DNA of 64,000 nt from Vermamoeba vermiformis (taxonomy: Eukaryota). The DNA lies in assembly GCA_045837725.1 (NCBI GenBank), contig JBEWZL010000038.1, positions 1 to 64,000 on the forward strand, written 5' to 3'. How positions within the stretch are numbered: position 1 is the first letter of the stretch; every line of letters begins with the position of its first letter. Below the pieces are notes generated by a model. That model saw only the letters and a list, made by a program, of their open reading frames with translations, did not search any database and was not told where the DNA came from. Made by a program: the position numbers and the translations under genes. Below are positions 13,543 to 64,000 of the stretch, in pieces.

Positions 13543-16500
13543 TCATATCAAATATTTTAGATGGTGTGGAATGCAGTCCAACGGCGTCTCTCCACGGTTG
13601 TTTTTGATATTAGCACTTGCTCCACATCTCGCCAAGTCCATTGGCAACTTTGAAAAGAACTTTGCAACTTTAAAATTTTTGCAGTCAGCTTCCATATAAC
13701 CTACATGGAAGTATCGACATGCAATATGCAGCGCAGTGTCACCATTGTTGTCTTGTGCGTCGAGATCTGCTTTTGGAATCACATATTCCAGCACCATCCT
13801 CAGCTACAAAAAACCCATTAGTATAATCATTATTATTTTATAATGATAATAAAATTAGCTCGTTATCAAATACATATTTCATAACGTACCGATTGCTGGA
13901 TCTGTGAATTTTCCCGCATCTGTAACATTATTACGTGTAAGCAAATGAATATGCATGCAAACTTACGCGAATGATGATTCTCATGAGCAATGTACGGCCT
14001 AAATGATCTCGAGAGTTGATAAATTCAGGCTGTTTCTTCAACAAAGACAAAAAAAGTTCGTAATTCAAGTTTGATTGAGACAAGCAGTAGTCGAGTGTCG
14101 TCATTTGCAATCCTTGCTTGGTACTGCTAATTGTGTCTATTGAAGCAATCCACTCTTCTTTGATAGACTGTAATAATGACGCACTGTTGAGAATGTAATG
14201 GATCGGGGAATAACCGTGACTGTCTTGCTCGTTCAAATCAATCTTAGCTTGCTTGACAATCGATATCATATTCGGCCTATTATGATTGGTCAATTATTGA
14301 CGATATTGGTTAATCTTACTTTTGCGTTGGATCCGATCCAGATGTGTCCATTAAGGTACCGAATGATTCACTACGACAAGCCCTATTCGAATAAATTTAG
14401 CTTATATAACTAGTGTTAAAGACTTACATAACAAAAGGTGAATCGCCCACGTTATTTTTGCAAGCCCAGAGCTCAGGCTGTGTTCTGAAGTGATTGTACG
14501 CTGCCTGTAAATTGTATCGTACAAACTGCCACGTATTAATATTACTATAAAAGGAAAAAATAATCATTATTAGCCCTTCTTACCAAATGCAATAATGTAT
14601 TGCCTTCTCCGTCAGCGAGGGACGGATCCGATTTGTCGATCAGTTTGGACAACGTTTCAAGTGCTCCAGTAAGTTTGATCGACCTTTGTTATATCACATT
14701 AGATCATTATTAGCATAATAAATTATCGTCGCTATTGTTGGGGCATTCAAATTCCATACAGATCCGTTTTTTATCGCACAATACCACGAATCTCCCACGC
14801 TCTGCCTCCCTACCTAACTATGGAATATATATGTAACCTATTAGGTAATTATGCCCTCGAGAGGTGGCATACTATATTCCATATATAGAAGGTCCCACGT
14901 GACTTTGGTGCAGAGCAGTGAGGGCGTAGATCCGTTGTGTTTCTTTCATAAAAATTCGATTTCTCGGCATTTGAATGCCCGAACAATATTTGCTCAAAGT
15001 ACCTGTGAATTTGCGTGGTCTTATAATGTCGAGAAGAATTGCGCCAAGGCGGACGCAGAGTGGATGCGAATTCAAAAGGCGTTCTTGAAAACAAAAAAAT
15101 TAACTAAATTAGGAAAGCACTAATATAACGACGTTCATTAAATACGTACCGCGAAACTTTCGTTCTCGGCCTAAAATTAAACACCGTCATTTGGCTCCTG
15201 AAGTACGTATAATACTCTGTTTCGCTAGACAGTCGCAAACGTGAGCAAATGGACCAATAGCATTGCAGCTATAAGATAGTATACAGGTGTTAAAAAAAGA
15301 AGGGTCTATAATGAACAATACTTGCGCGTGACTTTCAACGCTGTAGTTTGAATGTTCGGATCCGCTCCGTTTTCCAACAAAAAGTTGGCGAGCTTCATAT
15401 TGCCAAAATAAATTGCGTAGTGTAATGGCGTATAGCCCATTGCATCCCTATAAAGCTCAAATCAGTATAAGACATTATTAAAAAACTATTCGAGACGTAC
15501 TTAACGTTCACATCGCATTTGTGGAGGATTATCTTGAAATCATTCGGTGATGCTACTGTCGCTAACAAATGCACCAATGTTCGATGTGATATCTGTCAAA
15601 AAATCCTTAGCTTAAATTCCTGTAATAAAAATTCAAATTAATGTTAAATACCGATTCGGTCAGTTTGAACACGTCCGCAGAACAGTTTGAAAGAGCTGCC
15701 TGGAGGTACCAAGGAATAGGCTTGGAGTTACAATGCAATCCATACACTGCCGCTGCCAAGGGTGTTATGCCGTTTGTATCTTGAACTTCCAATTTAGCAC
15801 CCTTGTTGATTAATAGCTCGACCAATGACCAGTCGCCGGAGTAGCAAACAGCATGCAGCGGCGTCCAACCATGCCCGTCCTAGAAAAAAATTCGTATTAA
15901 TACGGAGCTTTTTTTTTTACTCGTTTTTGTGTGCTACATACTGCTCGATTGACATCAGCGCCGTAAGCGATCAATGCCTTGATTCTGTATTCTTTGTCTT
16001 TGTGATAGAGCGTTGATCTGCAGGCACAAAGCAACGCCGTCGATCCTTTCTTAGTCGTGTCGTTGATCTTGTTTTTCATGAGCTCTAATGTATTCTCGTA
16101 ACTCATATTGAATGTACGCTCGAACTGATTTGTATCCAATTCCGTGGCCTTAGGCTCCTCAGTAACACTTTGTGGCATAGAAAATGTGAAGGACATCGTT
16201 TGTTTGGCAACGGGTTGTTCTCCAAAGTTAAAGCCAACAGTGTTTTTCGGTAAATTAAACGTGGTAGAATTATTACTATTATCGTTCATCGGTGCGCTGC
16301 TTGAAAGTTGTGGCATGTCAAATGAAAATTTTGATAGCGTTGAGGAGCTGTCAGCGGTGATTTTGGGCAAACTATCTTCCAATGTTTCGTCTATTTTGAA
16401 ATCGAATGGTTTGACTTCCAATTTTGGAGGCTGTTTCTTTGGCTGAGATTCGCTAGCAGGCTCCGCATTGTTATTTTGTGTTTCGGATAATGCAGGTTTT

Positions 16501-18700
16501 TTGTCATCATTTTCAACCGGTTGACTCGCCAGTAGTATTTTGTTGAGCTCGTCTATTGACGGCAACTCTTCTAACAGATCATCGTCTCGTTTTTTCTTCG
16601 GAGTTGCAAGAGACGGCGGAGCCTTGTTCCGTTGGCGGTTTGTGAAACCATAGGGCCGGAATATTTTGCCTCTCAAAAGTTGGCGTCTTGTCTTGAAAGA
16701 CCCAGTACTTCGAATTCTGCTCTGGCTCCACACTTTCAGTTGAGCCTGTCGGTTGTGGAAAATTGACGTTACGTAATGTCAAAATGTACAGCAGGTTCTT
16801 GCCGACAGCTGGCGCCGTATCGTTGTCTTCAATATAGAGTTTGTTATTCATGACCTTATAGAACTAATAATTGCATTGGTAAGTACTGCCGGTGATATAA
16901 TAACGGTTTAAGATATGTATCTAACGTACTCTATTATGATCTTTAAACAGCAATGTTCGCAACGACGAAGCCTCTAGTTTTACACCAGCTTCCAAAAAAA
17001 CGTCAAAACTTGCCCAAAAACCGACTTGCAACACCCACTGAAAAAAATTTTGGTTACTTCATCGATTCGTTCGAAGTACGTAACTTACGTGCAATAGAGA
17101 CTTGTTCTGCCATTTGGTATTCAAATCAACGTGGTCTCGTAGGAAAGTAGCTACTTCTTGTGAATCTGAACGGTCGTTAATTTTTTTTCCGGTAAAAGTC
17201 GATCGTTTTATGCATACCTTCGCCGTCTATTAAACAATGCAAGAAAGCAGGACCCCAATGATAGCTCTTCACTCTCACTCTTTTGTTCGGATCGGCACCG
17301 TTCTGCAGCAAAAAGAGCTTCATTTGTGCACTTTTAGCTTCTTTGAAGTACGACATATCGGGGTCTGGACATTCAATTGTAGCGCCAAGTGCCATCAATT
17401 CTTTGACTAAACTAATGTCGTTCTGTTCTATTGCCACTTGCATCGGGAACGGCTTATTCATGTAGTGGTTGTCGAGAAAAGACGGGCGATAGACAAACTC
17501 CGGATATCTGATAGAATAATAACTATTAGTGAGTTATAATTACGAAGAATAATAATAATATTGTCGTACATTGCATTTAAGTCGTAACCGAGCTCTTTGA
17601 CCATGTACTCGACAAATTCTTTGGCACCATAGTCTCGGACAAATGACGACAAAGTGGGTTCGGTAGAGTAAATGCTCGGATACGGAACTAAAATTGGTGT
17701 AATTTGCTTGAACGTTTCAAAGCTCGCTGGATATTTAAAAGCTTCATATGCGACGATGACCATTGTGTTTTTGATATGCATGACTGGTGGCATTGGTTCG
17801 TTAGCCTGTTTGAAAATCAAGTACTTCAAACTTGGCAGGGCCTCTACGATTGATTCTGCATATTTTCTAAGATTGCTGCCACGTGGATATGAAAAGCCTA
17901 ATCGTTGAATTTTGGTTAAAGTGTTCTTTGGAATTGCGACTTCGAAATTTTCGAAAGTGTTCGCTAAATATAGCTCTTCCAGATTTGGTAAGCCCTATTA
18001 ATAAATTAGAACTAATATATTATATAAAAATAATAAAATTTTACCGATAGTAAGTTGAAAATTGCTTCGTCAGGCACATCCGCGCTCAAATCAAGAAGTT
18101 TGAGCTCTTTGCATGAAGAATCTGGCAGGTGCGTCAAACGGGGAAGATTTGTTAATACTATTCTCTGTAATGATTTGCTGGTGAAAATAAGTTCGAGCGG
18201 CACTATAAAATTGTGGATGTCGGCGCAATTGTCGAACTCCAAATTGAGATTGACCATGGCACCACTATATTGCACTATAAAACACCCAAGTTTTTCCATG
18301 CAGCTTTTCTCTAAGGTTGCAAACATTTCTACCGTGTGCCAGGCCAAAGGGCTGCGCACTAATCTTTGCCATCTTTTTGAAACCTGAATTAATTGATAGA
18401 TTGTTTCAGTGAAAATTCTAATATCATTTAAAAATAAAATAATTAATTTTAATTGGTTTTGTTGAATGGAGTTAGAGATCTTTCGACGTAAAAACCGGAA
18501 AAGTATGAAGATAAAATTTTATCTTCGCCGGGTATAAATATTTGATATAAAATAGTTAATGCGAATAATATTAACGGCTGCAAAATAAATAAAAAATTGA
18601 TTACCTGCTCCAAGTGGATTCGTTGTGCAAACGGAACGTAATTATATACGCAAATCCAAAGGTCGTCCAGTAAATCTGGTGCTTTGATGTCTTCTTCCAT
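13543..18700 (-). CDS. F-box + LRR-like + ankyrin-repeat protein (paralog B), two +1 frame breaks
   Basis: MEEDIKAPDLLDDLWICVYNYVPF...VSKRWQRL; colinear with paralog A and shares intron positions. Extra base at 15227 and another in about 16580-16700. Confidence 0.8.
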
Positions 18701-24557: not shown

Positions 24558-24729
24558 ATTATGCAAATTAAAATAATATGTAATTTGTGTAATATATTAT
24601 CAGCGCAAATAAAAATAGCACCAAAAGGGTAAGGTTCGGAAAAATGTAAGAGAAATTCGATCAGGGATCGGTGAACAAACTCTAAAAACGGGAATTTACA
24701 TTGGGGAAACTAATATACAAATATCATGA

Positions 24730-25345
24730 CTATTGAGTCGCACATTTATCTTTAATATTGACCGTCTTTGGCTGCGATTTCTTCTTTTTCTTGTCTTCAA
24801 ACGTCGGTGTCTTCTTCGCGTCTCGATCTGTCGTAAGAATCTTCTGCAATAAATCCAATACTACCGCTTCTACGCATTCACCTGTCTTTGAGCTTGCTTC
24901 GTAGAACGTAATGCCATATAATTGGGCAAGACTCTGAACTTCGTTAATAGAAACTTCTCGACGTTGTGATAGATCGGCTTTGTGTCCCAATAATATTATT
25001 GGAAAATAATCTCCTTTTGTTGAACGTATGGTTCTGTATAATTCTTTGGCCTTGTCAAGAGTCGGCCGGTGGTCTATCGAATACATTAAGACGCATCCTT
25101 GACACGAAAGGACTTGTTGGTCCACAATAGTGTTGGATTGGTCTCCACTTCGGTATGTATATCAGATCTATGTAGTGCTTCACATTGTCAATTGTTGCTT
25201 CGCGGGAATACGTTTCATAGCCTGCTGGATTCGGAACGTATTCCTTCTGCTCAAACTTGTTCTCTGAAAATCGAACGCAAAAGCTTCTTTTGCCAACTCT
25301 CTGAGCTCCTAATACTAAAATTCTAAACTTTCCAGCTTCGGTCAT
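24730..25345 (-). CDS. Atypical Ras-family small GTPase, split by one +1 frame break (or pseudogene)
   Basis: G1 GAQRVGKR, G4 HKAD, G5 EASSK, polybasic tail and CAAX (CATQ). The two overlapping ORFs join by dropping one base at about 25149-25150. Confidence 0.8.
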
Positions 25346-25566: not shown

Positions 25567-28500
25567 TTATTGCGGGTTTTGTGCAGGCTGTAACACTTTT
25601 AACACGTGTGTATCCATTTTTGAATACAACACATTAAACGCCTGCGCATCCATTTGTTGCAAGCGTTGCAATTGTTGGATCAAGTACTGCCTGACTGTAA
25701 TGTGCGTGATAGGATCGTTCTTATATAACAAGCTGCCAGCTTCGTGCGTGCATCGACATTTCAGCGGCATCACTGACGTGCGACAACAAGTCTGGATCGT
25801 CATCTTCGACCTCTTCGGCTCCCTTTCGTCGAATAGTACCGCCCGGTATAATAGGCTCACCTGCATCTTCTTCGTCGGCTATGATTCCTGTAGCTGCTTG
25901 CACGACCAAGGCCATCATATCGGTCAATGAGGCCACGAGACCAGGTACTGTTAGCAGACTGCTCAGTGCAATTGCTGAGCACTTTCGTCGTCTGAAATCA
26001 GCCATTTGATCGATCTGACCAACAATATCAATACATTTCATCATGTTTCAGACCAATCAGGACTTACCTTATCGACCCAAATGTCCAACAAAGGAACCAA
26101 CAAGTTTTGTTTGCTATGGTTGTTTGGACTGTTTGACATGCGGCTGAAGAACGACAAGAAAAAGTTTTGATTGTGCAGCAATAATCGTGCAAATACGGTC
26201 AAGTAATTGGTCACCAAAATTTCGTTCTCCTGTTTGAAGCAAAAATTGAGCGGATCAAAGTTTTCAAATGGCCTTATCCAACGTACCTTTGCATCGAATA
26301 TCATCGATAATAGTCGTTGGAATATCATTTCGAAGTGTTGTGGCACGTCATTAGGGAACAACAAGATCAGTTCCTCGATTGGCTTTAGTAAAGCTATCAC
26401 ACCCTCTTGGACCAGATCTGTTGAAGCAAGACACTTCTCGAACATTGTAATAATATCTTTGAGATACACCTAAGAAAATAGTTACGTTAGAAATAAATTC
26501 TAAAAATAGTTGTAACTTCTTACTTGGACAAATTCGGTTTGGCCGAGCAAAATGTAGGCCTCCAGAATCTTCATGCAATGCTTCAAGTGGTAGTTGTTTC
26601 TGTTCATAATAGCTGTGTTGTTAGGGTACAACATTAGCAGCTCAGGTGTCATTTGTGTGGCCTCAGTAAGGACCGCGTGCCAAAGCAAAAGTCCGTCCTC
26701 GAGCAAATAAACTTCTTCGCTGCTGTTGATCGAAGTGCTGTAATGAATGACTGGCAATAACAAGCCCAAAAAGTCACGCACATCACCGACAGACTAACAA
26801 AAATTAGTACGGAAAACTTTGCAAGATTTTTCAGATCGGATCTTACCTTGACTAAGTACGTCAGTGACCGCAGAATTTCAATCTTAATCAAACTCCAATT
26901 GCTATTGTTGTGGTTATATGTAACAGGCGATGATTGTGCCTGTTTCCAAATCTGTGAAATATGCTCCAAAATTGTCTGCGTGTACGGTCGGATCTAGCAA
27001 CCAAGAATAAGCTTCATATTAAAGCCATTATTATGTAATAGCAAGGACTTACTCTAGCCTCCATCTGCTCTATTAAAGACTTGATAACGTTCAATACTTT
27101 CAATTTGCTATCGACCAAAGTTGAATCGCGTAGCAGCTGGAACAACGATGCAAAAATCGCATCTGAAACTGCAGCAAAAGTTTCGGCATTGAAACCAAAA
27201 TCATTTACAACTATATAGATACGTTAGAGTATGTCAAGAGTCGCAATAGCTTTCAAGAGTCTTACCGTGTTGAAGAGCTTCAGCGGCAGTAATTCTAACG
27301 ACAAGATCGGCGTTCTTGAGCAATTGATCCAAACAATTGTAAATCTGCCGAGAAGTTATTAGCATTGCATTTAAAATTACCTCGAGCATTTCATTAAATT
27401 ATATACTATATTTAATATTAATATTAAATTAAAATACTTACAGGAAGGCGAATTCCGTCATTGATTTTAGGAACCCATTGACCGAATAGCCATGCAATTC
27501 GTCGCTTAATAATTTGATGCCAATGGCTATATTATGCATAATATTAGTATATTAACAATCAAGAACAAAAAAAGATTTGCGATCTCGAGGATCGGGATCA
27601 ATGATTAAGTCGTTACAAGGACTTACATAGGATCGTCTACTTTCAGCTCTACTGCAAGTACACCAATGAACCACTGAGGGAAGTCAATATGATCCATCAA
27701 CTCCCATACTCCAAGACCAATCGCCGAGTAACACGCGTCTTTGTACAATAACTGATCCGCATTGGCCGTTGGCTTAATACCCTCTGTATGCCGTATTAAT
27801 ATTTATAACACCATAGAACATTGCTAACGTACCTTGTACAAATGCTAGCAAAGCAGGAACGCTTTGAGGGAACCGCCGGATCAGGACCATATACAAGTTT
27901 TGGGCGCAGGGCTGAAGATGAATTTAATACAGAAATATTCAATGTTATGTCTCTGCATAGAACTTACACGTCGCTTTTCAGTCCAGGCGTCCATTTTCTC
28001 TTCAATAAGGAATTCTTCAGGATTATTTTGCCATTCTTGGATATCAGCGGCAGATAATTTGAAATAATGTGAAACGAGCAATTGGAACAGCTCTTGAACT
28101 GTATTCGGATTGAAGAACGAAGCTACGATTTGTTCAGCCTATCGAAGATTAAAAAAATTAGGTAAGCTTTGTTTTCAAGGGTTTAATAACAAAGGCTCGT
28201 ATTAAAAAAAGGTATGTACGCGTTTTGGGCACCGAAGAGATCTTTTTAACGTGTAATCACGTTCGGTGTATTTTAAAACGCTGCGTTAATCTAGCACACC
28301 TCTTGAAACTGACGCAAATCACTCAACCCCGCTACCGAGGTAACGAAGAGAGCCTGTCATCAATTTTGATTGCGTGGGCATTATGATATTAAGGAAACAG
28401 TGGATCTAACTTGTTTCAAATTTTCAGATCCAAAACCGATCAGATCATATTATGGGATTGAAGTCTAAGTTATGATTTTCGTACCTGAAGGCCACCTTTG

Positions 28501-31766: not shown

Positions 31767-34700
31767 ATGCGCGTCCTCTTCGTCATCATATTATTGATTG
31801 GACTTGCTGCGTGTGAGCTGGGTCACAAGACAATTGAATTGCCCCGCTGGAGATCTTCATTTTCAATGGTCCAATACGACAACAAGATCTACATGCCTGG
31901 AGGCTTCCTTTCGCCTAGTGCCCCGACCAACACTATAGAAATACTGAATATAGACTACTTTGGAGTGGGAGGAGCCCTTGTTAATGCCAGAAGAACGCGC
32001 AGTGGTCACTCCGATCTTGGTTGGATCTCGCTTGGTTCTAGCTGGCGGGTTGAAAGACGGAACCCGATTTCAACACTGGAATCCTTACAACAAGACGATG
32101 GTAGAGTTTGGCCGCTTGCCTTCTGTTCGGAGTTATGGAGAAGGCAGCTTTCATTTTAAAACCAAGTCCATCTTCATTGACAACGCTGGCTTTATTGACA
32201 TATTTGACCACTCAACGCTGAGCTGGGACAATACTCAAGAATTATTGGAATTAACCCAAACAGTCGGTGTTCAAGTTGTTAAAGTTGTGGTTGACGAGAT
32301 TTGGATCGTTCGTGCAAGAAGTGCTTGGTTGGATCCATTACAATATGTCTGGAGCTATAATATAACATCAAAGAGCCTTTTCAACTACTCAGCACCGGTT
32401 TTCCCACTAAACGACGAGATAAGAATAACCCGATGCGGAAACGGATTCGTCCTCTTTTGGACAAGCCGCGACGTACTGGGCACCCTCAATCCAGCAACAG
32501 CAGATTGGAATAACATAACTCTAGAAATTGGCTCGATTTCAGCAGTCAATTCCATTGGAAGCCTCGTACTGATCGACAACGGATTGGAACTGCAGATTCA
32601 CTCCTTCGAAAATCCGAGTCTTAATGGAGTCCAGACCCTATTCGACGATCAGACAGCCTACAGAGCTTCTTTCACTATCCAAGACAAGGTTGTTTACGTC
32701 ATGCCATCTGGCGAGTGGATCATCTTCAATTCTACATTGACGAAGACTGTTCAATCACCTGGACCACTAGGAACGGTTATATCTAGTTTTAAGTGGAAAG
32801 AAGACTTGCAGCTGCTAGCAGATCTTTCTAACTTGATCACTTACTCTTCGACTACCGACTCGATCAACATTGTTTCGACATCTGGCCTTGGATCTGGTAA
32901 CATCCGCGGAGTATTCAAGCACAATGACGATATCGCAGTTGTCAAGAGCGACGCTATTTTATTCTACAATCAACAACTGGATCTCATTGACAACGTTCGA
33001 CGAGCACCAACATCCGCTGTTCCTATTGGTATCGTTGGGGACGACTTGTTTTACATCAGCGGTTGTTCCGTGCTACTGAACTTTACTCAAGAGATCACGT
33101 GCGATTTTTCAGGTGGAGCTTATTCCGTGGCAGAAAATGGCGTCGCGTTTGGTTTCAAAGGAAATCCTATTCCAAAAACGGATCTCAACATTTACGACTT
33201 TGACACGAAGAATTGGAGCTTAGTTATTCCACAATCTCCTTTCGAGGCAATTTACATCATTTTTCTATGCATATGGAGTTCCGAACAATCATACAATCTG
33301 GTTCCACTCAAGAACTTTCGCCAATCAACTGCGCTCGTACAATCTCCTAAATGAGAGTTGGTCTACTATTGAATTGATCGAAAACGTTGTTCTAGGCGAT
33401 GCAAGAGGTGCAGAGTTTCCAGTGATAGACGGACTCATGTACTTGCCTGTTCTCAACATTTCATTTTTGACGAGTCAACGTCAGTTCAATGGAGCAGCAA
33501 ATAACTCCCTCCAAAGACCAGGCGTTAAGAGGAACGAGAATTCGACAAATAATATCAAATCATCGAGATATTATAGCGCTGACAGTAAACACGGCGTTGT
33601 CGGTCGAATGCTATAACGTTACTTCTCAAACATGGTTCAGCTACGAGGTCTCAGAACACAGTCAACACGCACTGGCATTCCGCGATAACACATTATTACT
33701 ACGCGGCAATAGTGTCTATGGCGAAGATAACACAATGGTGACCATGGACTTGCTTGACACGCAGCAAAGAATAACGTCGTTGAGCGGCTTCATTAAGGCC
33801 TTTGATATGGCTTCTATTTCAACAACAAATTTCACACTTTTCGCGGGTGGAATTACGCCGTCTTCACGAAGCATAAGAACCGTAGACATATTTTATATCG
33901 TCCCACCAGAGACCCCGCAAGTGACGCCCGAGCCAGTGCCAGATCCACCTTCAAGCGGTGTACCGGTTGCAGCAATTGTAGCGCCTATTGTTTGCGGCGT
34001 AGCATTAATCGCTGGAGGTCTACTTGCGTTCTTTTTGATACGAAGAAAGAAGAAGCAAAGAAGGGAAGAAGAAGAATTGACTCCCGTAACAACGATCGGT
34101 CTCGCGAGCTTGAACGGAAGTAGTTTTTTCACGCCGTACACAGAAATCAAGTTTGGCGAGATTATTGGCAGTGGCGCGAGTGGGCAAGTGTTCGTAGGAA
34201 AATGGAAAAACACTAAAGTGGCGCTGAAGATGAGTATGACTCAAGCTACGGAGACGTTAATAGGAGAAATCAGATTGATGATAGAACTAAGACCACATCC
34301 TAATATCGTGCAAATTCTTGGCTACACAGTACATCCTGAGACTAGCAACATCATTCTGATCCTCGAGTACTGCGACGGTGGATCTCTCGACGCGTTGCTT
34401 TTCGATAAGCATACATCGCCTCCTATGTCTCAAAAGATCGAGTGGATCAAGGCTGTTTGCAACGGCGTCCTTCATTTGCACTCTAATAACATCGTGCACC
34501 GAGATCTTGCTGCCAGAAATATTTTACTGAGCCACAATGAGGCGAAGATTACGGACTTTGGAATGTCACGATTAGTTGGATCAGAAAATAGCAAAGGAAC
34601 GACGACTTCAGAGCTAGGACCTATTCGTTGGATGGCACCGGAGGCAATCCGATCTAAAGAATACTCAACCAAGTCAGGTACGGATTCGTTCTGAAAAATC

Positions 34701-43962: not shown

Positions 43963-46900
43963 ATGCGCTCAGTGGTTTTGGTTTTATGGAGTGCATTGAG
44001 CATAGTTTTGATATTTAATGCTCTGATAACAAGCGCCGAAAAAACAAACAAAATTGTGGTCAAACTAAAGCCAGAAGTATCAGTGGAAGAAGTGTCAGAA
44101 ACACATCCATTCGTAAAATTTGAAAGAGCATCAACACTTCCCAGAGTGTTTGTATTTTCTGTTCAAAATATCGATGATGCCGATCACGTAAGATTTATTT
44201 TTATTCTAAATAAATTACTGTTAATTTCCGAAAACTTGAAAAATAATTGTAATAAATCCGATCTGATCCGTTGACAAGCATTGCTGACTGTTCTCTTTAG
44301 GAGACGCAAGACTTTGTTTTAGATTCTCGGGTGGCTTGGGCTCATATTGATGAGACGAATGAATATCAAGCAATGGGACTTCCGCCGGATCCCTCTTTTC
44401 AAAACGGCGCACAGTGGTAAGAAATAAATGATCAAAAAATATGATTCTTTTTTAGAGTGCTTATTTAATATTATCCGCCGTATGAATATCACGAACGCAG
44501 AGTATAAGTATTTTCACCTCCCTGACCTAACTTTTTATTAAGGTTTCATGGCCTTATCAACAGCTCCTATGCTTGGGCAAAAGGATTGTCTGGTCAAGGC
44601 CAAATCGTTCAGGTATTAATTCAATTTTTTCTTATCTTACCAAATAAGAAGTCTAATTCCATTTTTTAGGTGATCGATACACCAGTATTTCCCGAAGAAA
44701 TCGATATACGCAATCAACTTGACCACGCAAGATCTTTCGAAGGAAATGTCACCGATCCGCCTGCGCGATCCGTTCCGCACGGAACAGTTTGCACGAACAT
44801 TATTACTGCTGAGGTAAAACAATCATATATTTGATTCTTAATTATATTATTTATGTATTGTTCAGGCTAACGACTTTTGTGGTGCCGGAGTTGCGTTCTC
44901 AGCTCGGGCAGCTGTCTTTCCATTCATTGCAAACAATGCACGAAGATTTTCTTTCGTAGACTTTGCTGAGGCGATGTCGCAAGGCTTTTTGGTACGAGAC
45001 TTTGTTTTGTTTCTGAAACAAGCGACAACTTTTGACACTTTGACAGGTGTCATCAAATTCGTACGGTGGAACTATGTGCCGTCCGTGGTTTGGCTGTAAT
45101 ATTATGCAAAATGGACTGGCGCCTGTTCTTCAAGACGCTCTTGAGTTGGCTCAAAATCGCAACAACTCCGTCTTTGTATTCGCATCGGGCAACGAAGGAC
45201 AATGGGAAGGAAGTCCGAACTTCGGCGATTGGGGCAGCTCGCCTCGCGTCATAATGGTCGGTGCCACACGAATCAATGGAACGAGAGCAGGTTACTCTAA
45301 CGTCGGACCAGCGAACTGGATCGTTGCTCCTGCTGGTGATCACAATGAAAACACTACTTGGACGTCGTCCATTGTGAATAACGAACAACAATGTGGTGAA
45401 GTTGGTGTTGGCACTTCATACGCAGCACCAATGGTCTCAGGGGCTGCTGCTATTTTACGATCTGTAAGTCGTATATCGCTTTTGACTAACTGCTGTAGTT
45501 TTAATTTTGAACTTGACAGGCATACCCATCGCTGACATGGAGAGATGTCAAACTGATTCTCGCGTATTCTACTGACAGAACTGACATCGAACATGAGAGT
45601 TGGTTCAGAAATGGAGCAGGAAGATGGTTCAGCAATCATTACGGCTTTGGTCAACTGAATGTCGGCAAAGCAGTCGAGCTTGGAGCAACATGGAAGTCAC
45701 TTGGACCTCTTCAGATCCGCACTTTTCATTCGAACATCCGCACACCAATTGAAATCACTGCAGACAATCCCGTCATCACATCTTCAATCTCAGTACCTCA
45801 TGGTATCGTTGCAAGCGTCGAAAGTGTGCAGTTGACTTTGCACATGGATGTCACGCGACGAGGAGAGGTTCAAATTGAATTGATTTCGCCAGCAGGCACA
45901 CCTTGTGTGATTTTCCCGTTCAGAAATGACCGAAACAGACATTACGTCAACTTCGTAACATCAGCGAACTGTTTCCTTGGTGAAGATCCGACGTACGTGA
46001 CACTTGTTATGTTACTATTTCTTTAATACTTTATTAATTATTCTTGCATCAGTGGTCAATGGACGTTAAGACTCACGAGGAACAGTCAAGCAATATCTAC
46101 TCCTTGGCTTGCACCCGACGCGTTGAACAGTTTTGCGGTGACTGTGTGGGGTGAAGCAGCACCTTCGCAAGTGCAACTCGTTTCACCACTGACAGCGACA
46201 AGACTGTCAAGCTTCGCTATCAAAGAAGGCGATACCTTCGAGCAGTTGGAACTGTTCAACAACTATCCAGCAACGATTGGTCTCTTCTGGAAAGGTACGA
46301 ATTGACACCAAAAAAACGATCGTCCGAAACTAACACGTTGAAAACAGATACATTCGGCCTCTATGGCGAGCTGTTCACCACAGAAGGCAAACAAACAACA
46401 GGCACTCAGAGACTCAATCCATCGAACTCTGATCATCCAACAGTCTCCGTGTTCTATGGTGGCGATCACGCGCTCACGTTCTTAACGAACGTGAACGGCT
46501 CAGTAGTGTAAGTACATAGCAATATTATGGCTGACACGTACTAATGCGATTATCGTAGGATGCAAGCAGAAGTGCGAAACATCGACTTCATTCCATTGAC
46601 ACCATTGACTGTTCTACCGTTCAGTGATGTTGACCCTGAATATATGTCAGTTGCAGCGATCGGAGGCAGGCTAATTGCGAGCTACAAGTCATCGGAAAGC
46701 AAAAGTTCGAAACTAGTACTTCTGAATGTCAACTTTGGATCACGTGACGCAACACCTCTTTGCGTTCCATCGTCAAACTTCACAACTGAAGCTGATGGAG
46801 ATGTCTCTGGCATCGATAACAACTGCACAGAGATCGTGTACCGAAGAGACGGCGAGATCTCGTTGGTTAAACAAACCGAGATGGGAACACAAGCATCCAA

Positions 46901-52402: not shown

Positions 52403-54859
52403 CTAATTTAATAGCAAGTCTTCTTTGGTTATTATAAAAGTCATTGACTCTTTGCCTTGAGGAGTGATGCTCGTAGTAATAATATTATCGGAGTTCGGAT
52501 CGACTTGCATAATGCCGTAGAAATTGCTGCCGCCTTGACCCCATAACAATTCTTCCGAACTGCCGGCGTACGGACGAGGACCAAAATTCGATGGGCCGTA
52601 AAATCCGTTCAGAGGCGACACTGAATACTCGTAGATGCCTATAATAACAAAATAAAAAGCATTAGATCTTTCCAAATTTTATCAGTAGATCCGCTCCGAA
52701 CAATTTCTATCGACATTTTTTGTTGCAATAGGCATATTATATTAGTTAAAATACGCATATTATTATTATTTAAATCAAGTTAATTACCTTTTCGCAATTT
52801 AAAAGCTCCAGCCCAATGCCTGTCACCACTCAAAAACACGACGCCGTTGATATTATTTTGCACGATAAAATCTAAAATTTTTTGGCGCTCGACAGTACGA
52901 CCGGCCCAAACATCTGGCCCACGTGACACTTCCGTGAACGGGACCGAAGTTCCGATGAACTAATAAGGAAAGATTAGAAGTTGGATAGATAAAACCTTAT
53001 ATGGCAAGATAATATTATAGTACCTTAATTTGCGATGAATTATGACTCAGCAGCCAAGCGAACAGATCTTGCAATTGTTCCGCACCCAACATGGTCTTAG
53101 TTGGACTATCATTAGGCTATAATTAATAGTTTATGTTAATATAAGACATATATAGTATTATATAACTGCTTTTACGCTAATTATAAATGATTTTAAGCCA
53201 ATTTTACCTCGCTATTTGGGGATCTGAACGTTCTCGTGTCTACGATAAAAAATGACGTGCTGCCAATATCAAAACTGAAATAATGAGCCACGTCTAAATA
53301 TAGTCATTAGATCGATACATTTACTATAATAAGGAAATTTTTGTTCGTTGAACTTACTCTCGGGAGCGGTAGCGTTAAATTTGGGATTTTTCACGCCACA
53401 ATAATCTTTCCACGCTGTAATCGCGTCAAAATATCTGCCCTGCAAATGAAATTTATTAATTTTATTATCGAACCTAAAATAAATTTGATAAAATCTTACC
53501 GCTGTGCCTTGATCCCAGTCATTGTCAAGTTCGTGGTCGTCAACTGCAAGAAAAATCGATTAGAATTATGATTATTGCCAAATAAGGAAATATTCAATAT
53601 GACTTACGCATAAAGTAGCTCGGATAAGCGAATAATTGGCGAATATATTCGTCGTTGTAAACGGATCTGTACCGATAATGATAAAACGAAGTTTTTGTGC
53701 TGAGCGGGAACGGATGGTCCCAATAAATGAAATCTCCGAGAAATACATTGAAATCGGGTTGTTCTTCTGCCATAGCCTTAATACTACGAACAAATAAAAG
53801 TTAACCTAGATCCGACATCCAAATTTAAAATATCTTCTATTGAATAATTTTAGGCTGCGTATTGCCTATTATCACATAAAATATTATGATAAATTCGAAT
53901 ATAACGCTTACTTATATAAAGGCTCGTTTTGCTTGTAGATGCAGGATCCAAATCCGAACTTGAACGCATAATTGCTGGTAGGACTCGGAATAGGTCTCGT
54001 TTTAAATGTCTCTATTTCACTAGTCTCATCGCCATTATCAAATATGGCTTGGAATTCATAATCTGTTTCAGGCGTCAAATTCTCCAGCGTAATTCCAGCC
54101 AAAAAGTCTCCTTGTTCGGTTAAATCAAATTCATCTGTTTCTGTCCATTGTTGCGAGCCAACAGTACGATAGTACATGACCTATGTATATTTACGTATTA
54201 ATGAATATTCTGCTACAATTTTTGATGCAAAATGGATCTTGATCCGAAAATTATCTAAATTTGTAATTAGTTCAAAATGGACTTACAACTGAAGTGCGCT
54301 CAGAATTTCTTATTAAAAATGTCGCGGAGTTGTGGCTTAATTGCCCGCGGTTCAAGAGCTTCAAATTAAGCAAGGGCTGGTGTTCAGATTGCGTGATCCA
54401 AACAATGGAAGCGATGAAAATGAGCATAACGGTGCCAGCTAATACTAGATAAATATATTGCACGACTGGTGGCTCGGTAATTGATCCTATAAATTTTAGA
54501 AAATTAATTTATTTTTATGTTCCGGAACAGATCCGCAATTAATTTTTACGCCGTTTATTCATTAATTGCATTTAATATAGTGAATATTTACGTCAAATAA
54601 TACGCGAATAATAGTAATGCTTACTCCATCCTTTTGACCGTTTCGAGTTGTCGCGCCATCTCAGTCTCCGTCGTGACATTAAATATCCTGAGACGGACAA
54701 GGCGAGTGATATTGCCATAAATACCCAAAATGCTACTATCACTTGATAAAACGCATAAGCTGAAATTCCTGCCGCAAAAGCGACTATTGCCGCCATCCAC
54801 CAAAAAACGGCCACTACCAATGTTGCATCATAGCAACAAAGTAAGCAGCCTTTGGCCAT
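52403..54859 (-). CDS. phoD: PhoD-family alkaline phosphatase with three N-terminal TM helices (copy A)
   Basis: FGFGSC, FLGDFIYWD, DDHELDNDWD, FFIVDTRTFRS, TMLGAEQ, FLSGDRH, YEYSVSP. Confidence 0.9.
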
Positions 54860-55030
54860 GGTTGTATTAATAATAATAAATGAAATGACAGCGAAAAAAA
54901 TCGGTTTTTGAAGGGCCAAACACGAAAAATGGAAATAATCGGAGAAAAGGCAGGTTACGGAACGGAAATTAAGGGATAATTTTGCGTGCTCATGGTTTAT
55001 TTACATATATGAAGGAGCTTCATAATATTT

Positions 55031-57296
55031 TTATCGCGTCAAGTCTTCTTTAGTGAGCGTAAAGACGACTGGATCTTGATCGAGCGGTTTTATCGATACT
55101 TGGAGGATATTATCGCTATTAGGATTAACATTGACTAGACCAAAAAATCTATTTTTTTCTCCGGCCCATAAGCGCTGTTCTGGCGAGTTACCGACATCCA
55201 CTTTACCGATCGGAGATGTAAACGCATCCCACGGCGAAACAGTGAACTCGTAAATACCTAAATAAATACAGTTAATATTTATAAAGCGATGATATAAATA
55301 TGACGCCGTTACTAACGAATTTGAATTCTTCGCGTAAGGTCAAATCCAGACTTTCTTACCTTTCCTAATTTGAAACGCGCCAGCCCAATGTCTATCGCCA
55401 GTTAATATCACCACACCGTTAATTCTATTATCGATAATAAAATTGATAATTTTGTTCTTCTCGTACTGTCTTGCTTGCCACGTATCGACCCCCGGCGCCC
55501 AGTCACTGAACGGCACTCCAAAAGTAACGAACTGAAATAATAAATATTAATATGCGTTCATATGAATATTAGTAAGTATGTAGTAGTACCTTAATTGACG
55601 AGCCATTCTTCGCTATTAACCAAGAAAATAGATCTTGCAACTGCGCATCTCCGAGCATAATTTTTTCAGGCCCATCTTTCTACAATAATATACCATTACT
55701 ATAATACTATTACTATATCGATTTAGTATATTATAATATTGCGTACCATACTATTAGGTGCTCTAAACGTTCTCGTGTCAGCCACAAAAAAGGATGTACT
55801 GCCCACGTCAAAAGTAAAATAATGCGTGGTGTCTGTCGTATTGTTAATATCCATATGAATAGTATTAGTATACTTAACGTACGAATTTGACCACTGCCAT
55901 TGAAGTTTGGAGGGTTCAACGAGCCTGCATAGTCGTACCACGCTTGGATCGCATCCGGGTACGGATTCTGTTCAAGAAGTTAGATCTGCCGTAGTTATAT
56001 CACTATAATACGTACTGCTATGCCTTGGTCCCAGTTATTTCTAAGCTCGTGGTCGTCAACTAAAAAGGAAGTTAAATCCGGTAAAATTGAAAAAAATTGT
56101 ACGTACACATAAAGTAGCTAGGATTGGATCCGAACAATTGAGCAATCTCTTTGCGATTATATACAGTTCTATATTGATATCTGTAGAAATCTACGTCGTT
56201 GTGCAGCGGGAACGGGTGTTCGTGGTAAATGAAATCTCCCAAAAACAGATTGAAATCGATCGGGCCTTGCGAAATGATTTGTTTGATGCTGCAAATGCAT
56301 TAATATTACGTACTATAATACTGCAAATGGAATATAATATTAATGATAAATAAGTACCCGTCTAGTGGTTGGTTCGTTTGTGGATTTGAATAGATGCACG
56401 ATCCAAATGCGAAATTGAATGCGTAAGTGCTATTAGGACTAGGAATAGGTCTAGTAGTAAATGTACCAGCCACAATTGTTTCAGCACCACCGTCGTATAT
56501 GAATTGATATTGGTACGTTGTGTCCGGTTGCAAATCCATCGTGGTCACGGATGCCACATAATCGTTGATATCTTTCAAACTATACGACGTCGATGAGGTC
56601 CATTTAGAAGCTTGTTGCGTCTTATATTGTAACACCTAAATAACAGTATTAGTCCTATTTCGCCTCGAGTACATCCGGACCGATCAGATTCGATTCAAAT
56701 TTTAAATTCATCAAGCGCTTAAATAATACTAAAGTGTACTTACTACTGCTGATCTATAAGGGTTTCTGACTAAAAATGAAGCAGAATTGTGGCTCAGTTG
56801 ACCTTTGACTTGGAATTTAAGGTCCTCCAAATTTTTGTACTTTGACTGCGTGATCCAAACAATCGAACCGGCAAAGAGAAGCATAAAGAGTATTAAATAG
56901 CCTAAGTATATCCATTGGATCACTGGAGCGGTCGTAAGCTTGCCTAGAAAAATAAAGTACGTTAATTTAGTGTCGGATCCAGAAAAGCTTCAACGGAGAA
57001 AATCTTTAAGCCGCTAATATTTTCTAATTATTATATTCAATTTTTCTATGAAAGTACTTACGCCAATTCTTGTCTTTTTTGCTTTTTTGTCTCCATCCGC
57101 GTCGTCTTCTTGACATTACAAATCCGATCGTGATGAGAACGAGGCCAATAAATAAAATGACCCAAAAAGCAATGACCGCTTCTAAATAACTATATATAGA
57201 AACAAAGCCTGCTAAGATTATAATGCATGCAATCAAGCACAAGAAACTGAACACGAAGATGGCTTCGTAACAACGAATCAAATTGCCTTGCGCCAT
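55031..57296 (-). CDS. phoD: PhoD-family alkaline phosphatase with three N-terminal TM helices (copy B)
   Basis: FAFGSC, FLGDFIYHE, DDHELRNNWD, FFVADTRTFRA, ILTGDRH; intron positions match copy A. Confidence 0.9.
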
Positions 57297-57795: not shown

Positions 57796-59818
57796 ATGTC
57801 GAACAAATCTTTGGAAACTTTACAAACTCTATTCCCAACCTTAAGTCCGGAAGTAATTGCAATGTAAGGCCAATTTAATAACAATACGAAGTGAATAATA
57901 TTAAAATAATTTTAGAGCACGCAATTAATGACGTTTGTGTAGAGTTCAGCAACAATGCGGAGGAGATCTTGATAAAACAATTATTAGCTTGTCAAATTTG
58001 GCACCGGTATGTATTTTGAGATCTTGCATATGACGATAATAATAAAATAGATGACGTACGGCATCAATTAATAGTGTATTGATTTTTTGTTGAAGCCTCA
58101 AAAGCCATCTGCAGCCCCGCCAAAGCAACAAATAAATTCAGCGCCACCTAAATTACCGCCAAAAACTGCTGTAAAAGCCCAACAATTCCCTGGTCCCCAA
58201 AAACTATCGAATGTAAATAATACGCAGCCGAAACAACAATTTAATGCCCCGCCAAAACAACGATTATCCACGCCAGTGCCAATGCAACAAAATTACGCTA
58301 ATAATACGCAATATAATAATCAGCCTCAAAATATTCAGCCAGTTGCACCAAAACAACCGGTCATGCAAAATCAAATTGGTCAACAACAACAAAATTTCAA
58401 TCAGCAACAAAATCAAATTCAAAATCAGCAAAATAATGCGGTGCATATTCCTCCGAGCAATCACCGTCAAGATTTTTGGCGCCAAATGGTATCTAATTTT
58501 CTGCCGCAAAATCAGCATCAAAATCAAACTCAACAAAATCAATCGGCTCACGCAATTCAACAAGCCTAATATTGACGATGAATATCAATTAGCTCCCGTT
58601 GGATTTGTGCCGCAAGGAGTGCCTAATAAGCCGTTAACGAGCAACAAATTAACGCGCGAACAAAAATTGACGTTCATTGAACAAGGCTACATTGTGGTGC
58701 CTAATATCGTGCCAAAAAAATTCACTGACGCAGCATTAAGGTACCTTAATATATCGATATATTAATAATAGTCGTATTTAATTATAATATTATGCTAGAG
58801 TTATTAATGCGCGAATGGGCAAAGGCACGGGAGGACCAGGTGAAGCGTTGCTTGCAAAATTTAAAACGTGGTTCCCTGAGCTCTGCATCAGCTCGCAAAT
58901 ATTGAATTTGTTCTATCAGACACCAGTGTATAGTTTGATATACGACTTGCTCGGAGAATTCGAACGACCAAATGCTGGGCAGATTACGATGAGGTAACTT
59001 CAAACAACTTTTTTCAAAATTTTAGTAACTGAACTAAATATGGTAAGAAATAATAGATTCCCTGGTGATCTTTGCATTGAGACTGATAACGGTTTTGGAA
59101 AAGTGGTCGATCTGTTGACAAATTTGATGAGCCCGCAGAATGCTCGAAACACATCCGAAGAAGGAATGAGTCCACTTCCTTTTTGGGACCGCGTAAGTGA
59201 TATATAATACGCCTATCTTACAAAATCTAACATTTTATGCTAGACGTGGCATGTAGACGGCATTCCTATCGAAGACTCGCAAAAAGAGGTACGTGCGCCA
59301 TTGGATCTCGAGTTACTTAACTAACTCTCTCGTAGGTCACAACATTTTCGCTGTTAGCAGGCGTATTTTTGCACGATATCGACGAGGAGCTCTTCGGCAA
59401 TCTCACTGTGTATCCTGGCTCGCACACTGCTTTGGCAGCCTATATCAACTCACTTGGAGGTCCTAGTATGCTTCAGAGCAGTGTCATAAAGCGTGCTCAG
59501 GTAATACTCAAGACCTTCATAATATATATGGCAATGATATACTGAACAAATGTTAGGCACCTGTTGAAGGACCAGTCCAAGTCAAAGGTCGGCGTGGATC
59601 CGTTGTCATATTCCATGGACTAATGGCGCATGCGATCGCCCCAAATATTACTCCAAATATCAGATATGTAATATATTATCGAATTCATGCGTAAGTAGAT
59701 ATTTGGTTGCCTGCATCCGATTTTAACTTTTGTCTTCAGTAAAAAGCCAACCTACAGACCGGAGACGATTGAAAATATTTGGATAGAATACGTTGGTTTG
59801 CAAGATTTATTACATTAG
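57796..59818 (+). CDS. CUE-like domain + Q/N/P-rich linker + PhyH-family 2OG-Fe(II) dioxygenase; probable +1 frame break
   Basis: LETLQTLFPTLSPEVI...CGGDLDKTI (CUE-like); LTREQKLTFIEQGYIVVPNIV, WHVDG, GNLTVYPGSH, HAIAPN..PNIRY (PhyH). Confidence 0.8.
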
Positions 59819-59872
59819 TTTGAATTTTATATAATATCTGTTAGTAAAGCTGTACATAGGATTGATTTTTTT

Positions 59873-60800: not shown

Positions 60801-62903
60801 ATGGAGCAAGGTCATCCGTCAGCAACCGATCGAGTCAATTTCACTCTCATCCATAAAGGTACGTCTTTTAAACGGAAAAATTAATTACGATAAAATTGTA
60901 TCCCATTAAGTTTTGTATTCAAATTATCTAATATTAATTTAAGCAACCGTACATCCGCCAAAATTGAAAAATAATTATTAAATATTTTTATTGCCTAGGA
61001 GAGTCATATTTGATGAATAGAAGTAATGAAGAAACCGTAGAAGAATTCGCAAAATTTTTAGAAGCTCAACTGGGCGTCAGTTTAGCCACGCAAAAATTAG
61101 TTCGCAAAGGAAAGAATATTCTAAGCGAAAATAAGGACCAAAAATTAGGGAAATTGGTAAGTAATAAAATTATTATATAATTAGGATAAATTGGAAGCGC
61201 TAGTCAATTTCTTAAAACTTTCAAAAATGACACGATCCCGGATCTCGATCTAACGCGTTTATAGGAGTTGAAATCAGGTTCTAAAATTATGCTTATTGGA
61301 TCCAGTGCAGATGACGTATTGAAAATTCAATCCATGAAAGAAGACAAGTTGATGCGCGGATTTGACGAAGAGAAAAAACTTCACAAAGGTAACTACCATT
61401 ATGATTGCATAATTTAATAGACATGCATATTAATATATATTATGTATAGCGAAGAAAGAGGTCAAATCAAGCCCTTACATTGGTCGTTACGAAGTTTTGC
61501 CTCAATTTACGAATCCATCTCCAGCCAAAGCGATGAAACTTTTACGAAGAATATCAACAGACCCTGGTATACTCGCCATAATGAAAAAGTATAATTGGCA
61601 CGTGGGCACGTTAAAAGAAATGCCACCAGAAGGCATGGTCGGAGTGAGCGAAGTCTGTATTCTCGGCTACAATCAAAATATGGGCGAAGCAATTGCATTG
61701 AGATTGCGCACTGATAATTTAAAGGGATTTAGATACTATAATGTTATTATGGAGACTAGTAAGTATAAACAATTTCAGTTTTTTCAGGTTCAGTGAACTA
61801 ACGGTTCTGTGAATTGACAGTGCTTCATGAATTATGTCACATGGTACACAGCGAACACGATTCGAAATTTTGGACTTTATTCCGTCAATTAAAGCGAGAA
61901 TATGAAAGTCTTGATTGGACCAAGTCAACGTAAGTTGAATAAGAATAATTAAATATGAAAATATATTCTAATGATTATTATAGAGCGCATACTATTAGAG
62001 GAGGCACGTTTCAGCCAAGTATCAATAAAAATATGGAAAATAATTGGCAGGACGACAGTTCGGACGAAGAAATGGAAGAAGAATCAGCGCACATGTTGAA
62101 TCCGAATGCGGATGCGGACATTATTCATCAATTGAACCCGAGAGAATTAGCAGCTGAAGCGGCAACATTACGATGGATGTCACAGCATAACAAAGACGTT
62201 ATTAGAGAAGATCCAAAAACAGCAGATCCGCATGAAAAAATGGACGTTGAACCGACTCACGATCACTGCACATCATTTGCATAGTCACGGACATGCAATT
62301 AATAATCAAAATTCTGCAAATAAGCCAGTAGTTAGTGACCAGCCAAAAGTCCCGGTTCAACCTAAACAACAAGAAGTTTCAGTGAAAAAAGAGCCGTGGG
62401 AATGTCCCTCGTGTCATTACCACAACGAAGTGACAGAAAATATCTGTGAAATTTGTCAAAATCATCGATCAAATGTCCCCGCGCCAGCACCAGAGAACGT
62501 AATCGGAAAGAACGCCGAAGAAATTAAAACGGAAATTAACTCCGAAGCGGATCTGGTCAACATTCACGATTCAACTGCAAATTTGGGAGAAAAATTAGAA
62601 CAAGCGATGAATAATTTTATAGTCTCTGTTACTGGTCCTGAAGCTAAGGCCGGTTTATCGACAATTTTCACCATTTGCAAGAATATTTTGGAGAATCCGA
62701 ACGAACAAAAATTCAAAAGCGTGCCATTGGCCAATAAGAATTTCAACGCTAAAGTCGGAAGATTTCCGAAAGCCATTGAAGTAATGAAAGTTATTGGGTT
62801 CAAAGAAGATCCGACAAAAGGCACAATTTCATTCGCTAGAAACGATCCTGTATTATTATGGCTTGCTAAATCGACTATTGAAAGCAAAATATCTGTTTTA
62901 TAA
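60801..62903 (+). CDS. UBL-WLM-ZnF(RanBP2)-PUB metalloprotease (Wss1-like); one +1 frame break
   Basis: UBL (TQKLVRKG...KIMLIG); WLM VGTLKEMPP...ILGYNQNMGEAIALRLRTD...LHELCHMVHSEH; WECPSCHYHN...CEIC; PUB NILENPNEQKFK...IGF. Confidence 0.9.
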
Positions 62904-62993
62904 ATTGTAAATAACTAACAATCAAAATGTAAATAAAAAAGTGTTTTTTCAACGTTTAGTCAAACGAATGTTGGATCTGCATCAAAATATTTA

Positions 62994-64000
62994 CTATTTA
63001 AGGCAAATATCGCAAACATTATCTTCGATCCATAACGCTTGTAATCGCTTCCTAGCATCTGCTTCTTTTCCAATTTTGGATCTGTCGCTCGCAATCTGAA
63101 TTAACTTTTTCATTTGGTTTGCATCAAAGGTGACTTGTTTAGAATAAGGATTGCTATCTCTTTGAAATACGTATTGCAAAATCTGGAATAAAATCTCGCT
63201 TGGAATTGTTGCAAATACTCCTCTGTCTTTTGTCAAATAAATTGTCCGCAAGATGCTTAAGCAGTGGACGACCGCTTTAAAATTCGTTAATAATTTTGCT
63301 CTATCCATATTAAAAATTCTTAGTTTGTCCAAATTGGCTTGTCCTCGTGGATAACAACGAACTTGTAGGAACGGATTTCGACTGGATGCGTACACAAAAT
63401 CGTTCCAATAATAAAATTCTTTGATCTTAATCTGTTGAATCGAAGTATGATGTATCAATGTATCTATTAAGTTCTCTTGTTGGTGCAAATCTAAGTCCAT
63501 TTTCGAATACTAAAGTTTGGATCGGCGATGACGGCTCGACCAATTTTCCAAGATCTAACGGATCAAAATTTCCTCGATGTTCTGTATCTTCTCTAGCTCT
63601 AAATATCAATTTACGAAGCGATCTATATAACACAGTAATTAATTACTATTAGAACCGGTAGAGAGATCTTACTTCATTGAAAGTAATGACTTATTCATCT
63701 CATCATCCACCATTAGTTGTTTCAAGGGTACTTCCAATACCTCTATTACAGTATTGGTCGATATTGTCTTAATTAACGGGCATATCAGCATTCCAGGCAA
63801 GATCAATTTTCGCAAAGTCGGATGTGATGCTATTGTTGTCGCTAATAACTCTGTTTCTTCGCTTGCGTTCGATCAAATCGGCGCTGTTGTCATAAAAATC
63901 GATTTTTTCTAAGAATTTGTTGCCGGAAATAGCTTCGCTGAGGGATCTGTAGTGCTTTAGTCGTACGTGTCCAATTCGAAATTTGAGGAGTTCCAAAGAG
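62994..64000 (-). CDS. RNI-like LRR protein with C-terminal F-box-like motif (5' end outside window); two +1 frame breaks
   Basis: NKFLEKIDF, HPTLRKLIL, KSLRKLIF and HTSIQQIKI repeats; C-terminal TIPSEILFQILQYVF; intron at about 63672-63623. Confidence 0.7.

Follow-up and report, generated by a model that had tools for sequence, protein, structure and literature searches.

Twelve frame breaks, every one a single extra base (+1), were confirmed in a stretch of 64,000 nucleotides of Vermamoeba vermiformis DNA (the window; assembly GCA_045837725.1, called G000 below). The extra bases are almost certainly an artefact of some kind, present only in this assembly, and the genes that carry them are ordinary and intact. 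The likeliest mechanism is that, at a heterozygous SNP, the two alleles were both written into the consensus, in tandem; this probably accounts for the breaks. An earlier note on this DNA had described about 12 breaks, all +1, and had preferred assembly error as their cause. The breaks are present as described, judging from run contigs, relatives, paralogs and a blind gene hidden Markov model (HMM), and the preferred cause holds, since the bases are missing from the genomic contigs of a near-identical sample at five of five sites. Most of the proposed positions also hold (Table 1). The importin-11 base, however, is at 25732, 9 nt before the stop; the WLM break is real but lies at 62267, 15 nt before the stop; and of the two LRR breaks, the one placed at 63502 belongs at 63477.

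Table 1. Extra bases and +1 breaks in the window, with the nature of the pair and the material that locates each site.
Feature	Position	Strand	Pair or codons; located by
F-box/ankyrin gene B, extra base	15227..15228	-	C/T pair, GTC or GTT (Val); paralog A
F-box/ankyrin gene B, +1 break	16580..16700, estimate 16611	-	base not pinned; HMM
Ras-family GTPase, extra base	25149..25151	-	G/A pair, CCG or CCA (Pro); run contigs
Importin-11, extra base	25730..25732	-	C/T pair, CTG or TTG (Leu); run contigs
Kelch-like receptor kinase (RTK), extra base 1	31956..31957	+	T/A pair, Ser or Thr, non-synonymous; run contigs
Kelch-like receptor kinase (RTK), extra base 2	33246..33248	+	one G of GG or G/C pair, non-synonymous; run contigs
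Kelch-like receptor kinase (RTK), extra base 3	33472..33473	+	G/A pair, ACG or ACA (Thr); run contigs
S8-type protease copy 3, extra base	46892..46898, alignment gap 46896	+	exact base ambiguous; tandem paralogs
PhyH-like gene (name from the earlier note), +1 break	58546..58566, best 58557-58558, approximate	+	ATT or ATC (Ile); relative L002
WLM-ZnF-PUB gene, extra base	62266..62267	+	C/T pair, CAC or CAT (His); relative L002
LRR gene, last exon, extra base	63476..63477	-	A/G pair, Lys or Glu, non-synonymous; paralogs and P0024
LRR gene, first exon, +1 break	63864..63875, not pinned within range	-	paralogs L080, L081
Extra bases outside coding sequence	24627, 27923, 29533	.	absent at full depth from X1 and X2 alike

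Comparison with other DNA was made at five coding sites (Ras, importin-11 and the three in RTK) using X1 and X2, public contigs of a heterozygous, closely matching sample. Because 30 of 30 bins are covered and no importin intron is skipped, X1 and X2 behave as genomic DNA. Relative to the assembly, X2 carries a 1-nt deletion at all five breaks (at about half depth in Ras) and X1 at three. The base is left out at full depth in both at 25732 (X1 56.9/56.9, X2 229/229) and 33246 (X1 60/60, X2 257.2/257.2), and in X2 at 31957 (215.8/215.8) and 33472 (315.2/315.2); at the latter place it is left out in none of X1 (0/62.9) or of a further run, X5 (0/8.27). At the Ras site, 25151, roughly half of the depth lacks the G in each (X1 42.2/78.4, X2 203.4/362.7). 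Independent DNA thus lacks the extra base at all five coding sites compared and at three non-coding places as well, one of which, 27923, sits in an intron (27908-27968) that X5 skips.

Where one run leaves out the listed base at full depth, another may show its gap elsewhere. At 25732, 31957 and 33472, a covering contig from another run has one gap away from the listed base: the X5 contig over importin-11, the X1 contig over 31663-32063 and the X5 contig spanning 33417-33707, respectively. Judging from these contig gap counts, the displaced gaps would be what the second allele gives, and different runs appear to drop different neighbours of the pair. Among the 12 indels listed, with 51 more beyond this listing, eight are single bases left out and one is a single base put in, and both alleles are never listed at one site. 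Heterozygosity of the sample is evident from 28 letter differences between paired contigs over 32452-32814 and from 245 places in 10 kb at which X1 carries a substitution. A DNA search of G000 with 31700-32300 for a contig of the second haplotype matched the window only.

X1 and X2 contain only 0.59-0.61 of the sampled words and so possibly represent another strain. This leaves some room for the view that genuine frameshift mutations have arisen in the assembled strain or in one haplotype, as null alleles in a heterozygous amoeba. The half-depth deletion in Ras is also what a true heterozygous insertion would give, and allele-specific 1-bp insertions are described as genuine in Trypanosoma brucei in the available part of one report (PMC8445201). 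Such mutations are nevertheless a very improbable source of the breaks. None of the 12 breaks, all +1, is matched by a -1 partner in the window, the conserved importin-11 is affected, and RTK is broken three times, yet its kinase domain scores well against Pfam. Moreover, the deletions seen at full depth in both runs (25732 and 33246) do not fit null alleles, and mutation offers no reason for the synonymous-pair pattern described below.

Relatives and paralogs read through the breaks. A colinear relative was found at eight of the 12 sites, having been sought outside the three RTK sites, and in-frame read-through in related DNA, proteins or paralogs was seen at six sites beyond the five compared with contigs. 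Alignment of F-box/ankyrin gene B to paralog A leaves one extra base, as a single gap, at 15227. The 203-aa relatives P0001 and P0002 are colinear with Ras, and the Pfam Ras domain falls on both pieces of that gene. The importin-11 junction is covered by 10 of 13 cluster members, all 10 of which read through it. The closest labelled relative, V. vermiformis importin-11 (EukProt EP00029 P008369, 1007 aa), which names a relative rather than the strain of the window, shares a 90% cluster with the best relative of the window gene; it is colinear over the break but, unlike the window gene, unbroken. Both tandem paralogs of protease 3 are one base shorter at the break, relative L002 stays in one frame across 58546-58566 in the PhyH-like gene, and for WLM, whose domains are identified by Pfam, the L002 alignment has one gap at 62267. 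In the LRR gene, paralogous exons on C44 (212-220 aa) are unbroken over the last exon, P0024 is colinear with Lys at 63477, and open frames of 344 aa (L080) and 341 aa (L081) span the break in the first exon. The break near 16611 is predicted by the gene model of the blind HMM, its one source; among 1518 candidates there was no longer homolog of this piece. Another candidate relative, L003 (34% identity), was set aside as too distant. Tiny introns at the breaks are excluded, since the difference from paralogs, relatives and runs is always a single base.

The extra bases have a characteristic relation to their neighbours. Of the 11 +1 sites that are pinned, eight have two adjacent bases that form a transition pair, and the protein is the same whichever of the two is dropped. 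These comprise five of the eight pinned sites in the window and all three in actin-like genes on another contig, C61; the count of 11 omits the unpinned 16611, 46896, 58558 and 63875-63864. In simulation a synonymous transition pair arises by chance at 0.23 of sites, which gives P ~7e-4 for 8/11, with the transition criterion added post hoc, after the data had been seen. Synonymy alone is a weak test (chance 0.42, P ~0.04), while the sites pinned after the idea had been noted fit the pair pattern in five of six cases (P ~0.003). The spectrum of the neighbouring pairs, rich in synonymous changes and transitions, thus resembles that of coding SNPs, by a criterion that is partly post hoc.

This pattern bears on the mechanism that the earlier note had favoured, insertion-biased long-read error, taken here as left unpolished and independent of heterozygosity. 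Random insertion would explain why the bases are absent from other DNA and why +1 outnumbers -1, and indels are described as the main long-read error in the available text of PMC8445201. The pair is non-synonymous at three of the eight pinned window sites (31957, 33246 and 63477), and 33246 and 63477 also fit a doubled neighbouring base. Random or duplicating insertions, however, would yield synonymous transition pairs at a frequency of 0.23, compared with the 8/11 seen, and they predict neither the half-depth Ras deletion nor the displaced gaps in other runs. Random insertion is therefore an unlikely origin, and less likely than the writing of both heterozygous SNP alleles into the consensus.

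The tandem-allele mechanism would operate as follows. The organism is heterozygous at some 2% of its positions, and its two haplotypes are collapsed in the assembly to a single sequence. At a minority of the heterozygous SNPs, a few in 100 over the stretch compared with the runs, both alleles would be kept consecutively, adding exactly one base; less often, neither allele would be written, giving a -1 break. A two-allele origin would therefore yield clustered +1 breaks, mostly outside homopolymers, at synonymous positions and with intact flanking motifs. As in the earlier note, no credible -1 break was found in the window, though such breaks exist elsewhere in G000, at C61:97387 and near C44:173316. 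Both of these pinned -1 breaks are at third codon positions (Ile and Arg).

The extent of the problem was gauged with the blind HMM, which penalised +1 and -1 shifts equally and in which GC-AG introns were not modelled. It recovered eight of the 12 window sites, including 16611 at all four penalties, protease 3 (called at 46884) and the PhyH-like gene (58546), and missed 15227, 25151, 63477 and 63875-63864. Three extra calls in the window (9109, 39731 and 1214) were read as false on inspection, because two are GC-AG introns and one is an exon unbroken in paralogs. Outside the window, over 252 kb of DNA predicted to be coding, its calls were 21 +1 and four -1, on eight of 11 contigs, a density of about one +1 per 12 kb of coding sequence; these counts contain false calls, as did three of 11 in the window. 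Frameshift-allowing alignment of actin-like genes on C61 gave three +1 breaks and one -1 break; 11 stretches were aligned and the three C61 genes counted, the other eight being dropped for introns or divergence. Two simple reference-free scans for frame switches were left unused, one having found none of the window sites and the other being swamped by intron noise.

Were the bases real, they would have to be removed by pervasive +1 ribosomal frameshifting, Euplotes-like or through four-base decoding, or by deletional mRNA editing. In Euplotes, +1 and +2 shifts occur at stop codons inside the mRNA, for which AAA_[T]AR is a frequent context, and transcriptomes show them, according to the available portion of PMC10235951. 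The likeness is that many genes of one protist nuclear genome seem to need a +1 step; here, all breaks are +1 with intact flanks, and the extra base at 15227 is the first base of a stop. The resemblance ends there. The earlier note had proposed stop-skipping at five sites, but only 15227, one of nine located sites, lies on the stop. The other located sites are 9-200 nt upstream, with importin, WLM and PhyH at 9, 15 and ~10 nt; the 16580 site is not pinned, and 63477 likewise lies on sense codons. Restoration of the frame by skipping the first base of the stop is uninformative, because any +1 break followed by a frame that stays open past that stop would show it. The five proposed stops follow GTC, CGA, ATA, GCC and GCA rather than AAA, and no rare shift word is shared among the sites: the 17 four-letter candidates are all found in frame, with 38-813 occurrences each, in the 77,878 predicted codons that are unbroken.

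Frameshifting would also require the base in both genomic DNA and mRNA. It is absent from X2 at five of five sites (at about half depth in Ras) and, at 25732, from eight of 15 RNA reads in X17, as editing would also give. No RNA run was listed as holding the queried stretch, and X17 was included by its species label; it informs on importin only, because its 216 placed reads are mostly <95% alike and RTK depth is near nil. Editing, for which the base should be in DNA and not in RNA, is unneeded, as the DNA already lacks the bases, a comparison between RNA and DNA runs not established as one strain. In addition, extra bases occur in non-coding DNA, the DNA of relatives is in frame, and the sites are not common to paralogs and orthologs, those of protease, F-box/ankyrin gene B, importin-11 and LRR having no breaks there. 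Recoding of any of these kinds is thus extremely unlikely. It is just as hard to credit that some bases are real in the assembled strain, chiefly at the seven sites beyond the run comparison, with full-length proteins produced through a recoding system absent from near relatives, either +1 frameshifting without a motif or the deletion of single mRNA bases. No title on recoding in Vermamoeba was among the matches listed in the literature search.

Closer parallels to a two-allele consensus error come from assembly. In a collapsed assembly of T. brucei Lister 427, indel errors arose from nearby allelic variants (PMC8445201), and the Hapo-G paper describes polishing failures in heterozygous regions (PMC8092372). 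In the available parts of these sources, the cases share with the present one false frameshifts in intact genes at heterozygous sites of a collapsed diploid consensus. They differ in that they involve misalignment in the neighbourhood of clustered variants, differences in repeat length and a homopolymer deletion that was not restored; no description of the two alleles of a single SNP in tandem was found in the portions available of the literature on collapsed-assembly indel artefacts, and the available text of PMC5632298 has no bearing on the mechanism.

The extra bases come from mistakes in the assembly rather than from any novel mode of decoding. Had motif-free recoding proved pervasive in the nucleus of an amoebozoan, the finding would have been a major one, but the evidence speaks against this. 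Scaled up roughly from 370 kb to the full 43.3 Mb, the HMM rate, if it held genome-wide, would leave a few thousand genes falsely broken. Frameshifts, split genes and pseudogenes reported from this assembly therefore need checking against reads first, and whether the same protein results whichever of two neighbouring bases is dropped offers a cheap test for this class of error. For the biology of the organism the breaks have no significance; their practical use is as a quality flag for the assembly.

Overlapping reading frames appear in a six-frame reading of the window (C38:1-64000 of G000, a 43.3-Mb assembly in 309 contigs) at all 12 places where an earlier note had reported +1 breaks. The second break in the LRR gene stands, but not at 63502, since the C44 paralogs and a protein relative (P0024) put it at 63477. 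In Ras and importin-11, the Pfam matches of the two halves flank each break in order. The window is eukaryotic and gene-dense, with about 40% G+C and short introns (median 58 nt in the HMM gene model); its importin-11 is 94% identical to its best relative, P0011, which shares a cluster with a EukProt Vermamoeba vermiformis protein; on this one gene the organism is probably a Vermamoeba-like amoeba. The metagenome relative L002 is 70-75% identical to the window in DNA.

Frame breaks and other features of the window and related contigs
Feature	Position (strand)	Codon pair	Observation
F-box/Ank B	15227	GTC/GTT	One base longer than paralog A
F-box/Ank B	near 16611		Gene model as sole basis
Ras	25151	CCG/CCA	Relatives (203 aa) colinear at break
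Importin-11	25732	CTG/TTG
Kelch-like receptor kinase	31957	non-synonymous
Kelch-like receptor kinase	33246	non-synonymous
Kelch-like receptor kinase	33472	ACG/ACA
S8-type protease copy 3	46896		One base longer than both tandem paralogs
PhyH-like	about 58558		L002 in single frame across region
WLM	62267	CAC/CAT	One gap in alignment to L002
LRR	63477	non-synonymous	C44 paralogs intact
LRR	63875-63864		C44 paralogs intact
Three further +1 sites	C61	ATT/ATC, GTT/GTC, GGG/GGA
Actin-like gene (L033), -1	C61:97387		Third base of Ile codon missing
LRR paralog (L082), -1	near C44:173316		Third base of Arg codon missing
Probable GC-AG intron	9121-9185 (+)		GCAAG donor; apparent exon boundary here in paralog B
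Probable GC-AG intron	1251-1192 (-)		GCAAG donor
DOMON-like repeats, then cytochrome b561 domain	5128-7985 (+)
Three tandem S8-type proteases	35150-47900 (+)		Intron positions matching
Multi-exon gene	about 48500-52289 (+)		C-terminal Heparinase II/III-like match (E 2.4e-05); hydrophobic C-terminus
Two similar adjoining stretches	53497-56464		68-84% alike in pieces

Four public sequencing runs were aligned to 24600-34750, a stretch holding five of the 12 break sites, and the indel evidence comes from 12 of the 63 indels found. X1 and X2 are from one sample, whose DNA label is a guess; they cover 30 of 30 bins and retain every importin intron, and thus behave as genomic DNA. The earlier note had proposed looking for the extra bases in genomic reads, and X2 lacks one base at all five sites, at 203.4 of 362.7 depth at 25151 and at full depth at 25732, 31957, 33246 and 33472. 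Among the indels listed, X1 lacks one at 25151 (42.2 of 78.4), 25732 and 33246, and its contig spanning 31957 has one gap, placed outside that list. Single-nucleotide deletions occur likewise at three non-coding places (24627, 27923 and 29533). The importin base is missing from 8 of 15 RNA reads of X17, a divergent strain, and the X5 contigs spanning 25732 and 33472 have one gap each. X1 and X2 may come from the sample behind the assembly, in which case the extra bases are plain errors, or else from another strain, in which case these genes are intact in a strain almost identical to the assembled one. That the bases represent real null alleles is very improbable.

Small shares of 24700-34690 also occur in X5, X8-X12 and X14-X16, which carry the labels of six other organisms. 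X5, the one examined, yields spliced contigs with few differing letters, so it contains the window's amoeba or a near relative.

Recoding of real extra bases by the cell has a practically negligible probability. The Euplotes shift is specified by internal stop codons, frequently within the context AAA_[T]AR (PMC10235951), whereas here one of nine measured sites lies on a stop and the others lie 9-200 nt upstream. The stop-skipping pattern pointed out in the earlier note carries no information, since it arises at every +1 break with a second frame that stays open past the stop. No four-letter shift word common to the sites was found among 17 candidates, each occurring 38-813 times in frame in 77,878 unbroken predicted codons; recoding therefore fails on both stop position and shared word. 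At importin-11, 10 of 13 cluster members span the junction, and each of these is continuous there, at the place defined by the reads and not at the stop. Editing of the mRNA is unneeded, as the DNA already lacks the base.

A collapsed consensus that sometimes put both alleles in tandem is the probable source of the breaks. X1 shows substitutions at 245 places over 10 kb, and a pair of contigs differs by 28 letters across 32452-32814, so the compared sample is heterozygous. For the majority of pinned sites, the extra base and the one beside it are two ways to spell a single codon. The leading rival, random insertion error, is unlikely: synonymous transition pairs occur at 8 of 11 pinned sites against 0.23 in simulated random or duplicating insertions (P ~7e-4), a criterion that is partly post hoc and fits five of the six sites pinned once the idea had been put forward, while any synonymous pair is expected at 0.42 (P ~0.04). 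Under the two-allele reading, writing both alleles would give a +1 break and writing neither a -1 break; third-base loss at both -1 breaks, which lie outside the window, is as expected for the latter. A second allele would give both the half-depth deletion in Ras and the gaps that are displaced in other runs.

A self-trained HMM with equal +1 and -1 penalties blindly recovered 8 of the 12 window sites, with three false calls, two of them explained by the probable GC-AG introns, whose flanking exons appear from the sequence to join in frame. Run on 37 other 10-kb stretches from 11 contigs, with 252 kb of predicted coding DNA, it made 21 +1 calls against 4 -1 at a penalty of -8, and 31:13, 10:3 and 5:2 at -6, -10 and -12, false calls included. 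The calls are clustered, with zero on three of the 11 contigs.

Among other features, each S8-type protease has a hydrophobic segment near its end; copy 2 matches Peptidase_S8 and the P-domain, and copy 3 is without the stop common to copies 1 and 2 and extends about 70 codons further. The Heparinase II/III family is mostly bacterial, so the gene with that match is possibly a transferred one. One of the two adjoining stretches weakly matches the purple acid phosphatase N-terminus, with a score short of the Pfam cut-off. Six actin genes (L009-L014) on five contigs encode an identical 375-aa protein, among 123 actin family matches in G000.

False frameshifts in collapsed heterozygous assemblies (PMC8445201) and polisher failure in heterozygous coding regions (PMC8092372) are both described. 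The tandem two-allele form was not found in the literature searched, which is weak evidence on the literature. The breaks are almost certainly an artefact rather than a real biological feature, and their value is as a quality warning for assembly G000.
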